Of a stretch of DNA of 24,000 nucleotides, positions 18,361-20,160 are shown one piece after another. The first letter of the stretch is position 1; every line of letters begins with the position of its first letter. The stretch is from Pseudomonadales bacterium (lineage in GTDB: Bacteria > Pseudomonadota > Gammaproteobacteria > Pseudomonadales > Endozoicomonadaceae), in the NCBI GenBank assembly GCA_965201045.1, contig OZ241746.1, positions 1,703,081 through 1,727,080 on the forward strand, in the 5' to 3' direction. Under the pieces are notes generated by a model. It was given only the letters and a program-made list of their open reading frames with translations, was not told the DNA's origin and ran no database searches. Position numbers and translations under genes: made by a program.

Positions 18361-18424
18361 CAATTTAAGCGAAATTCCCCCCGCATAACAGCTTTGCTGT
18401 TTGGGGGTGGGATGGATAGCGTTG

Positions 18425-18833
18425 TTAGTTTTCTGGTCTTTTCTGTTTCTGTATGTACTCTTTTAGTATTTCAAGCGGGGCTCCGCCTGCAGTGATCAGG
18501 CAATACGCCCTTGTCCACAAAACGGGCTTTTTCCAGTAGTGGCTCTTCAGGTGGTTAGCAAACTCTTTCCTGATGAGCCGACTGGTTACTGTTTTCAGGC
18601 TGTTGACAAACTTGCTTGGCGTGATTGTAGGGTGAAAGTCCAGGAGGAGGTGAACATGGTCTGCTTCTCCACCAAACTCATCCAGCTCAACCTCCCACTT
18701 TTTACAAAGGCGGAGACAAATTTCTTTGAACCGATCGAGCATTGTTACCGAAAGACACTTTCTTCGATATTTCGTAACTAACATTAAATGGTATTTTAGC
18801 TTGTAACAGCAGTGATAATGTGCTTTCGTACAT
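18425..18833 (-). CDS. tnpA: IS200/IS605 Y1 (HUH) transposase TnpA; only nearby ATG is 1 nt out of frame (possible pseudogene)
   Basis: YKLKYHLMLVTKYRRKCL, HUH motif ADHVHLLLDF, LKTVTSRLIRKEF, and a C-terminal Tyr region LEILKEYIQKQ. ATG at 18833 is in the +1 frame relative to the conserved frame. No canonical in-frame start precedes the KYH motif. Confidence 0.65.
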
Positions 18834-18867
18834 TGACACCAATTGATTTTTTTGATAGTATACGCCC

Positions 18868-20100
18868 ATGAGAGCTTACAAGTACAGAATTTATCCGAAC
18901 AAGAAACAAGAATTGTTGTTGACACAACACTTCGGTTGCTCTCGCCATGTGTATAACTGGGCACTATCTGAAAAAGAAAAACACTACAAGGAAACCGGGA
19001 AGAGCCTTTCAAAACGCAACCTTCAGGATAGATTGATTGCCAGCAAAAAAAGAGACAAACCCTGGTTAAACAAAGTAAACAGCCAAAGCCTTCTGGCATC
19101 GTTAGCTAATCTGGATAAGGCTTTCTCTAATTTTTTCAAGGGGTGGGCAAAATTCCCACGATTCAAAAGTAAGTATGCAGGTTGGCAATCCTTCCAGTGT
19201 CCTCAAAACGTCTCGGCAAACTTTGAAAGCAACATGGTTGATTTACCAAAGATAAAAGGAATAAAATCCAGGTTGCACCGAGGTTTTGAAGGGAAGATCA
19301 AAACAGTTACAATAAAGCGCTCACCTTCAGGAAAGTTTTTTGCAAGTGTTCTTGTAGACGAGCAAGTACATATACCTATACCGGTAACAGTTGATTCTGA
19401 ATACACGCTTGGTTTAGATGTTGGTCTTGAGCACATGCTAATAGACAGCCATGGAAAAAAGACAGAGAACCCACGGTTTCTAAAAGATTCCCTGAATAGT
19501 CTTGCTGTTGAACAAAGAAGGCTGTCCAGAAAAAAACAAGATTCTTCAAACAGAGCGAAACAAAGGCGAAGGGTAGCAACTGTACACGAGAAAGTGTCAA
19601 ATCGCCGCTACGACTTCATTCAAAAAGAAACGGCAGCACTGGTCAATAAAAGCCACGTGACCACATTTGCCGTTGAAGACCTGAATATCAAAGGTATGGT
19701 AAAAAACCGCAAGCTGTCCAGAGCCATCAACGATGTGAGTTGGGGCACGTTTCTTTCTGTGTTGGAGTACAAGTGCCGATGGAACGGAAAAAACCTTGTC
19801 CGTATTGGTCGTTTCCAGCCCAGCTCAAAGCTTTGTAGTGAGTGCGGAATCAGGAAAGAAAAATTGCCCTTGTCTGTGAGGAGCTGGCAGTGTCAGCACT
19901 GTCAAACCCTACACGACAAAGACGTCAATGCAGCAAAAAACATTAGAAATTTTGCTTTGGCTGATGCGCCGGGACACGGCGTTTGTGTAAAGAGTTCCTC
20001 TGTAGCAAAACCTGTCAGCCCAGGTGCTACAGCGAAAGGTGTTGAGGATTCTCAACATGGGTCGCAAGAAGCCCCCACTACAACCGCTCTTGCGGTTTAG
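18868..20100 (+). CDS. tnpB: TnpB (IS605 OrfB) RuvC-like RNA-guided endonuclease, apparently intact
   Basis: MRAYKYRIYPNKKQ N-terminus. RuvC motifs GLDVGLEH (D), TFAVEDLNIKGM (E) and HDKDVNAAKNI (D). Zinc finger CSECG...CQHCQ. 410 codons without interruption. Confidence 0.9.
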   Translation: MRAYKYRIYPNKKQELLLTQHFGCSRHVYNWALSEKEKHYKETGKSLSKRNLQDRLIASKKRDKPWLNKVNSQSLLASLANLDKAFSNFFKGWAKFPRFKSKYAGWQSFQCPQNVSANFESNMVDLPKIKGIKSRLHRGFEGKIKTVTIKRSPSGKFFASVLVDEQVHIPIPVTVDSEYTLGLDVGLEHMLIDSHGKKTENPRFLKDSLNSLAVEQRRLSRKKQDSSNRAKQRRRVATVHEKVSNRRYDFIQKETAALVNKSHVTTFAVEDLNIKGMVKNRKLSRAINDVSWGTFLSVLEYKCRWNGKNLVRIGRFQPSSKLCSECGIRKEKLPLSVRSWQCQHCQTLHDKDVNAAKNIRNFALADAPGHGVCVKSSSVAKPVSPGATAKGVEDSQHGSQEAPTTTALAV

Positions 20101-20103
20101 TGG
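20075..20103 (+). other. Right-end subterminal hairpin of the IS605-type element, overlapping the tnpB stop codon (expected part of the omega-RNA scaffold)
   Basis: 12-bp stem with a one-base bulge and a TCTT loop. The TAG stop of tnpB (20098-20100) lies in the 3' arm. Confidence 0.6.
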
Positions 20104-20160
20104 TGGGAGTGTGTCACAACCAAAATTTAAGATAACAATTAATAATTTTTAAAGTGCTGT

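Follow-up and report, generated by a model that had tools for sequence, protein, structure and literature searches.

The window analysed here is a 24,000-nt stretch of contig OZ241746.1 of a Pseudomonadales bacterium of the family Endozoicomonadaceae (positions 1,703,081 to 1,727,080), and it contains tandem ankyrin-repeat genes together with an insertion sequence (IS) of the IS200/IS605 family. The first of these genes, ank1 (20161–21522, + strand, ATG at 20161), has an intact open reading frame (ORF) for an ankyrin-repeat protein of 453 aa; the second lies at 22119–23456 and the third starts at 23803. Upstream of ank1 (paralog 1) is a conserved 'distal' block (18295–18360, + strand; family D7), 92% identical to that of paralog 2 (21988–22053), and the block is followed directly by a complete IS200/IS605-family element of 1757 bp (18361–20117, + strand), which begins CAATTTAAGCG and ends GGGAGTGTGTCAC. 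The list of ORFs shows a 410-codon + strand frame at 18868–20100 and an overlapping minus-strand frame ending at 18425, corresponding to tnpB and tnpA, respectively. The element landed inside the conserved block that precedes ank1, the first in a tandem series of ankyrin genes, and we consider it highly probable that it is a recently active IS of the IS605 type that arrived by an ordinary insertion 3' of (T/C)TTAA. A preliminary description of this DNA had likewise placed an IS605-type element with an intact 410-aa TnpB between the upstream block and ank1, and both the protein domains and the six genomic copies agree with this.

Copies, ends and target motif of the element

A search of the host genome itself (5.66 Mb, one contig, 37% G+C) gave six full copies of the element at 97.6–100% identity, plus fragments. 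When the copies were aligned, a conserved block was found in every one of them, starting with TTAAC-AATTTAAGCG and ending with GGGAGTGTGTCAC. The DNA flanking the six copies is mutually unrelated and differs from the first base after GTCAC (20117), the right end of the element. On the left side, TTTAA stands 5' of the five other full copies and of one solo left end, and it also precedes six copies of a related IS; directly 5' of the left end of the window copy is CTTAA (18356–18360, + strand), its target or transposon-adjacent motif (TAM). It should be underlined that conservation among copies cannot by itself tell a flanking target from the first bases of an element, and uninterrupted paralogous sites were sought for this reason; two of the copies lie in repeated DNA and provide them. 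For the copy at genome position 4378640, eight uninterrupted paralogs read ...GTGTATTTTTAA-TGCTGC..., as against ...GTGTATTTTTAA-C-TGCTGT in the joined flanks. For the copy at 5288255, three uninterrupted paralogs read ...TTTTAA-TTCCAT/TCCCAT, as against ...TTTTAA-C-TTCCAC in the joined flanks. Since the joined flanks are one C longer than the paralogs at both sites, C18361 appears to be the first base of the element and TTTAA the target.

The ankyrin genes point to the same position. The homology between paralogs 1 and 2 passes through TGTGCTTTT(G/T)TATACGCTTAA and ends at 18360, and other members of the family in the genome have (G/A)CTTAAAATA at the insertion position. Because the homology stops at TATACGCTTAA, the insertion point is not TTTTAC but lies within the 3' part of the conserved block. 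The preliminary description had assumed a target or TAM of the TTTTAC/TTAC type and element ends at about 18377 and 20120; the data give (T/C)TTAA as the motif, and the copies and empty sites move the ends by 16 nt and 3 nt, to 18361 and 20117.

The architecture of the element is that of its family. Comparison of the two ends of the window copy (CAATTTAAG... and ...GTGTGTCAC) revealed no terminal inverted repeats, and at the seven junctions no target-site duplication was found, the right flanks being unrelated to (T/C)TTAA and to one another, with which the empty paralogous sites agree. Each end carries a subterminal imperfect hairpin, at 18376–18412 on the left (+ strand, the top strand; DNA fold −13.7 kcal/mol, z = −3.4) and at 20072–20107 on the right (+ strand; −14.6 kcal/mol, z = −3.1). 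The right-end hairpin contains the stop codon of tnpB and is also helix 7 of the omega-RNA consensus described below, with eight covarying pairs. Three features that mark membership of IS200/IS605 are present: a Y1 TnpA, subterminal hairpins on the same strand without inverted repeats, and a pentanucleotide target without duplication. By analogy with the family, the element would move as single-stranded DNA through the 'peel-and-paste' action of TnpA and would join 3' of (T/C)TTAA without duplicating the target.

According to PMC5027513, the top strand of IS200/IS605 elements is expected preferentially on the lagging-strand template. The GC skew of the genome has its minimum near 1.29 Mb (origin) and its maximum near 4.18 Mb (terminus), and with the origin so placed the top strand is on the lagging-strand template in four of the six copies, the window copy included. 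The cumulative skew is irregular at 4.75–5.5 Mb, which may point to inversions in that region.

Several points weigh against an ordinary, recent insertion as described. The CTTAA of the window copy is off the TTTAA consensus, and the copies at 5226803 and 5288255 are oriented contrary to the lagging-strand rule. A simple insertion does not explain the absence of 22 nt beside the right end (see the last section), and the omega-RNA as an actual transcript, its 3' extent, its guide and read-through into ank1 are things that we infer from the DNA. The placement of C18361 is based on two paralog comparisons at 81–94% identity with other indels nearby, and the flanking motif could be TTAAC instead, the element then starting at 18362 with AATTTAAG. 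TTAAC stands before AATTTAAG at all seven junctions, window copy included, as compared with six of seven for TTTAA, and the related IS likewise shows TTTAAC. However, one extra C is present in two independent joined flanks (TTTTAA-C-TGCTG versus TTTTAA-TGCTG, and TTTTAA-C-TTCCA versus TTTTAA-TTCCA), and TTTAA is known as a TAM in which the −5 position is free; we therefore hold TTAAC to be improbable, though deserving of some weight. Far less credit is due to the notion that the 1.76-kb segment is ancestral upstream of ank1 and was lost from paralogs 2 and 3. It is true that no empty ank1 site turned up in 30 related genomes (none of the same genus), the one match there being 69% identical and confined to the upstream gene, and that metagenomes scanned for the empty site (TGTATACGCTTAA..AAAATTTAAGATAA) gave no match; the corresponding scan for the left end (AATTTAAGCGAAATTCCCC) gave four hits, all by chance and diverging directly after the pattern. 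But five further copies, 98–99% identical, lie in unrelated contexts with exactly the same ends, uninterrupted paralogs are known for two other insertion sites, and the segment encodes a transposase and TnpB, all of which makes an ancestral origin next to inconceivable.

tnpA, tnpB and related systems

The element has both tnpA and tnpB and is thus a two-gene IS200/IS605 element and not a tnpB-only unit; the preliminary description had made no mention of tnpA. The two genes are divergent, with their start regions abutting. In ISHp608 the genes are co-directional. tnpB (18868–20100, + strand) is intact and encodes an RNA-guided nuclease of 410 aa with the Pfam domains HTH_OrfB_IS605, OrfB_IS605 and Cas12f1-like_TNB, and all 410 codons are kept in five of the six copies. 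The protein aligns with ISDra2 TnpB (8exa, 8h1j) across residues 2–392 (E = 6e-66). In this alignment GLDVG, AVEDLN and HDKDVNAA pair with the D/E/D motifs of the ISDra2 RuvC domain, and CSECG and CQHCQ with its zinc-finger CxxC motifs, so that the RuvC and zinc-finger motifs assigned earlier by inspection, including two CxxC pairs, hold up. The stop codon (20098–20100) is inside the right-end hairpin, as had been proposed, and lies 60 nt 5' of the ank1 ATG, where the preliminary description had counted 61. A promoter-like site for tnpB, TTGACA-17-TAGTAT with TG before the second hexamer, occupies 18833–18861 (+ strand); it has the top score in the region (10/12), the score being a match to consensus only.

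tnpA (18425–18829, − strand) has 134 codons and a stop and encodes a Y1 HUH transposase (Pfam Y1_Tnp, E = 8e-40). Its product aligns with ISHp608 TnpA (2a6m) over residues 8–133 (E = 2e-26), with the HVH motif and the C-terminal Tyr in register. Its start, however, is altered: the window copy has ACG (18827–18829) where relatives have their ATG start, reading T(ACG)-KAHYH as against MKSHYH... in the related IS, and no in-frame ATG, GTG or TTG was found near the start. The ACG is common to four of the six copies, and an in-frame ATG is present in two only. One of these, at 5226803, has the ATG at the canonical position; the other, at 2022045, is a variant shorter by 4 nt (T6 for T7, plus a 3-nt deletion), which joins an upstream ATG overlapping the tnpB ATG (CATG). 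Judging from its sequence, TnpA of the window copy is probably not made, or made poorly. With tnpA lacking its canonical start, mobility of this copy would depend on TnpA supplied in trans, probably from the two copies with an in-frame ATG. Slippage at the T7/A7 run (18847–18853) could possibly bring the Y1 frame into phase with the ATG further upstream (18869, minus strand), but a mutated start is a simpler reading than a frameshift because the start codon of the relatives falls where the ACG stands. We also considered whether the ATG had been lost as a trade-off that created the TTGACA −35 of tnpB, and rejected this since copy 5226803 has both.

The closest relatives of the TnpB are found in Endozoicomonadaceae. 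Related IS with TnpB proteins 66–73% identical occur in an Endozoicomonadaceae metagenome-assembled genome (MAG; CBDDPF01, loci L014–L016, L020, L022 and L023), in Endozoicomonas sp. Pac_F2a (L017) and in Zooshikella (L021). The copies in the MAG CBDDPF01, with TnpB 72–73% identical, share the TTTAA|C left junction and the GTCAC right end, and in all three hosts the related IS shares with the window element the right end ...GGGAGTATGTCAC and an omega-RNA fold in which compensatory changes are seen. The related IS differs from the window element in its left-end sequence, CGAACATTGCGG..., and in having a tnpA with a normal ATG (MKSHYH...).

Among well-studied systems, ISDra2 of Deinococcus radiodurans (8exa, 8h1j, 8bf8) resembles the element in the catalytic and zinc-finger residues of TnpB, the Y1 TnpA, the subterminal hairpins, the coding of the omega-RNA by the right end together with the 3' end of tnpB, a guide taken from flanking DNA, and the lack of target duplication. 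It differs in its TAM, given in papers as TTGAT, or TTTAT in an editing design, versus (T/C)TTAA here; unlike ISDra2, moreover, the window element has tnpA divergent from tnpB with abutting starts, and the tnpA start codon is missing in the window copy. With IS605/ISHp608 of Helicobacter pylori (2a6m, 2vhg), TnpA aligns over its full length and belongs to the same mechanism class, but the cleavage-site motifs differ. The element fits the known IS200/IS605-TnpB system, and nothing in it departs from the known mechanism.

Omega-RNA scaffold and predicted guide

The omega-RNA, or right-end element RNA (reRNA), has a scaffold of about 163 nt (19955–20117, + strand) that overlaps the 3' end of tnpB and the right end of the IS. 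To assess its fold, the window element was aligned with five relatives (from the Endozoicomonadaceae MAG, Endozoicomonas, Zooshikella, a Sericytochromatia MAG and an unclassified MAG). Together these sequences yield a consensus of 52 pairs in seven helices, and 26 of the 52 pairs show compensatory, two-sided changes. In the alignment 96% of the cells are paired, as compared with 27–46% when the partners are slid by 1–3 columns, and none of 500 shuffles reached the observed values. The single-sequence RNA fold of the scaffold has z = −5.1. This strong covariation shows, at the level of sequence comparison, that 19955–20117 encodes an omega-RNA scaffold. No omega-RNA family of Rfam was matched at either the gathering or a permissive threshold, and the sole hit within the element was a chance match to a long non-coding RNA (E = 0.35).

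Since the right end is at 20117, the predicted guide begins with AACC at 20118. Its first 16 nt are those of the right flank, AACCAAAATTTAAGAT (20118–20133, + strand), the conserved sequence ending at GTCAC. Transcription would extend past 20117 into the flank and so give the guide AACCAAAATTTAAGAT.... The preliminary description had rightly predicted an omega-RNA over the tnpB 3' end and the right end with a guide taken from the flank, but the guide it gave, CAAAATTTAAGATAAC, is 3 nt out of register. It had also made the use of the flank as guide dependent on shared ends among the copies, and the ends of all six full copies are identical.

Both the motif and the junction have counterparts in other TnpB systems. 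In SisTnpB7 of Sulfolobus islandicus, a thermophilic archaeon, the TAM is TTTAA with a free −5 position (NTTAA is equally good), the guide follows directly after a conserved UUCAC, and most TAM substitutions lower cleavage (PMC11043419). The TAM of ISAam1 TnpB, whose host likewise belongs to another lineage, is also TTTAA (PMC12908284), the likeness of these two to the window element being one of motifs taken from papers and not of aligned proteins. The reRNA ends before the guide with UUCAC in SisTnpB7, with GUCAC in the window element and with UUCAC in one relative (L018). Given the free −5 position in SisTnpB7, the CTTAA of the window copy is compatible with TnpB function. ISDra2 TnpB cuts in the presence of its TAM (Karvelis 2021; PMC8612924). 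For TnpB of the window, cleavage of double-stranded DNA dependent on TAM and guide is predicted. Together with its omega-RNA it would recognise only CTTAA|AACCAAAATTTAAGAT, the joint formed if the window copy excises. Cleavage of this joint would, following Karvelis 2021 (PMC8612924) and Meers 2023 (bioRxiv 10.1101/2023.03.14.532601), provoke recombinational repair from the element-bearing sister chromosome and thereby retain the element.

A different role for the guide had been suggested in the preliminary description, namely that the element inserted at a TTAC-type motif and that TnpB, led by a guide of about CAAAATTTAAGATAAC, cleaves the sites 5' of paralogs 2 and 3 or homes to them. The attraction of this proposal is that an uninterrupted run of 15 bases from the right flank (CAAAATTTAAGATAA) is found again 5' of paralog 2, and in a more diverged form 5' of paralog 3. 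The guide-like sites are TTACAAAATTTAAGATAAGA upstream of paralog 2 (22076–22095, + strand), preceded by AAATT, and TTACAAAATTTCAGATACAG upstream of paralog 3 (23754–23773, + strand), preceded by CATTT; neither is a plausible target. The sites were scored in the only register with substantial identity to the guide. In this register paralog 2 reads TTACAAAATTTAAGAT, with AAATT at the TAM positions and three mismatches, all at guide positions 1–3, and paralog 3 reads TTACAAAATTTCAGAT, with CATTT at the TAM positions and four mismatches in 16, three of them at guide positions 1–3. It is the right end at 20117, setting the guide start at AACC, that brings about these mismatches and TAM positions. 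In addition, TTAC is never found at the left junctions, all seven in the genome and six in the related IS being TTTAA or CTTAA, and the cited assays of ISDra2 TnpB (PMC8612924) and SisTnpB7 (PMC11043419) use a cognate TAM. No NTTAA site with two or fewer mismatches to the 16-nt guide was found genome-wide. The promoters of paralogs 2 and 3 are thus not expected to be TnpB targets or homing sites, and we regard the proposal as very unlikely; the natural target would be the vacated site in the window.

Partial derivatives of the element are also present in the genome. One is a protein-free derivative of 283 bp (L009:1501–1783; genome 931285–931567, minus strand) resembling a palindrome-associated transposable element (PATE) or miniature inverted-repeat transposable element (MITE). 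It consists of about 75 nt of the left end, a diverged tnpB promoter region (TTGACA-17-TAGTAT) and then, directly, the 163-nt omega-RNA scaffold, and CTTAA stands on its left side, with a right flank of its own, TAGTTTGTAGTAGCAT, on the other. Derivatives without protein genes that retain the omega-RNA are already known from the literature as PATEs (Meers 2023, bioRxiv 10.1101/2023.03.14.532601). A solo omega-RNA scaffold with right end (L007:1501–1663; genome 2637816–2637978) is 98% identical and starts at the same CTTTGGCTGATG; the DNA upstream of it is unrelated, with no recognisable left end. Two fragments, a left end (L008; 2919318–2919452) and a right end (L010; 2736647–2736756), abut the same foreign terminus, GTGGTACCCT..., and the ORF beside the left-end fragment resembles, by eye, an orfA of the IS3 type. 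It seems that another IS split one copy and that the halves (L008 and L010) were later separated. The 26 TNB-domain matches in the genome comprise the 410-aa family and a second TnpB family of about 15 copies, with frames mostly of 354 aa. Far upstream in the window, at 4936–5002 on the minus strand, there is a match to the Rfam family of group II introns (RF00029, 50 bits).

The upstream region of ank1

When the element is left out, paralog 1 reads GCTTAA|AACCAAAATTTAAGATAAC and paralog 2 reads GCTTAA-AATAGAATTTAAAAATAAAATTTTAC-AAAATTTAAGATAAG. The upstream region of paralog 1 is 22 nt shorter than that of paralog 2 (window 20118–20121 versus 22054–22079), and in the best alignment 2 nt separate the right end of the IS from the start of the 22-nt gap. 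The longer form is kept in paralogs 2 and 3 and in a fourth paralog beyond the window, and since paralog 3 and the fourth paralog keep the 22 nt, by parsimony the loss is specific to the lineage of paralog 1. The element has consequently not simply split a distal from a proximal block, as the preliminary description had it. The 22 nt may have been lost before, with or after the insertion. One speculative explanation is that the gap is a repair scar, left when the element excised, TnpB cut the vacated site, imprecise repair removed the −35 and the element re-entered at the surviving CTTAA. The gap does span the zone 15–21 nt from the TAM where TnpB enzymes cut, yet we hold this course of events to be quite unlikely; if true, it would mean that a host promoter had been remodelled in nature through cleavage by TnpB.

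The conserved block (TTGCnAAAT..N..TGTGCTTTT.TATAC..TTAAAATA) was also seen outside the window, 5' of further genes at genome positions 1731154, 1733246 and 5151958–5158766, among them a second tandem cluster near 5.15 Mb. The block is an upstream element of the whole family and does not stem from the local duplication alone.

The insertion puts most of the upstream block 1.76 kb away from ank1, and the missing 22 nt include a −35-like TTTACA. Across the upstream regions of the paralogs a single promoter-like site was called, TTTACA-18-GATAAT of paralog 3 (23753–23782); in the same register paralog 1 has CAACCA-18-AATAAT. The Shine-Dalgarno-like sequence of ank1 is AAAGTG (20151–20156), versus AAGGTG in paralogs 2 and 3, indicating a weaker ribosome-binding site. 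No terminator-like site was found between tnpB and ank1, and since transcription of tnpB and the omega-RNA necessarily passes 20117, some read-through into ank1 is likely. As judged from these features, we would give about an even chance that ank1 is transcribed by read-through from tnpB and the omega-RNA. That the gene is largely silent is less likely but a serious possibility, and what probability remains, the smallest share, falls to transcription driven by the residual −10. An outward promoter from the right end was rejected as a candidate, as the spacing of 21 nt between GTCACA (20113–20118) and the closest −10-like hexamer is too long.

The value of these results is mostly one of annotation: for a TnpB element in a member of the Endozoicomonadaceae they give the exact ends, the TAM (T/C)TTAA and GTCAC as the end motif, and they supply a model of its omega-RNA. 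The compact 410-aa TnpB, with its defined scaffold and TTTAA-type TAM, could interest those who collect TnpB editors. For the ankyrin genes, the idea of a transposon guide RNA targeting the sister promoters is removed, and what stands is that the element has disrupted the control region upstream of one member of a tandem ankyrin gene family of the secreted type.

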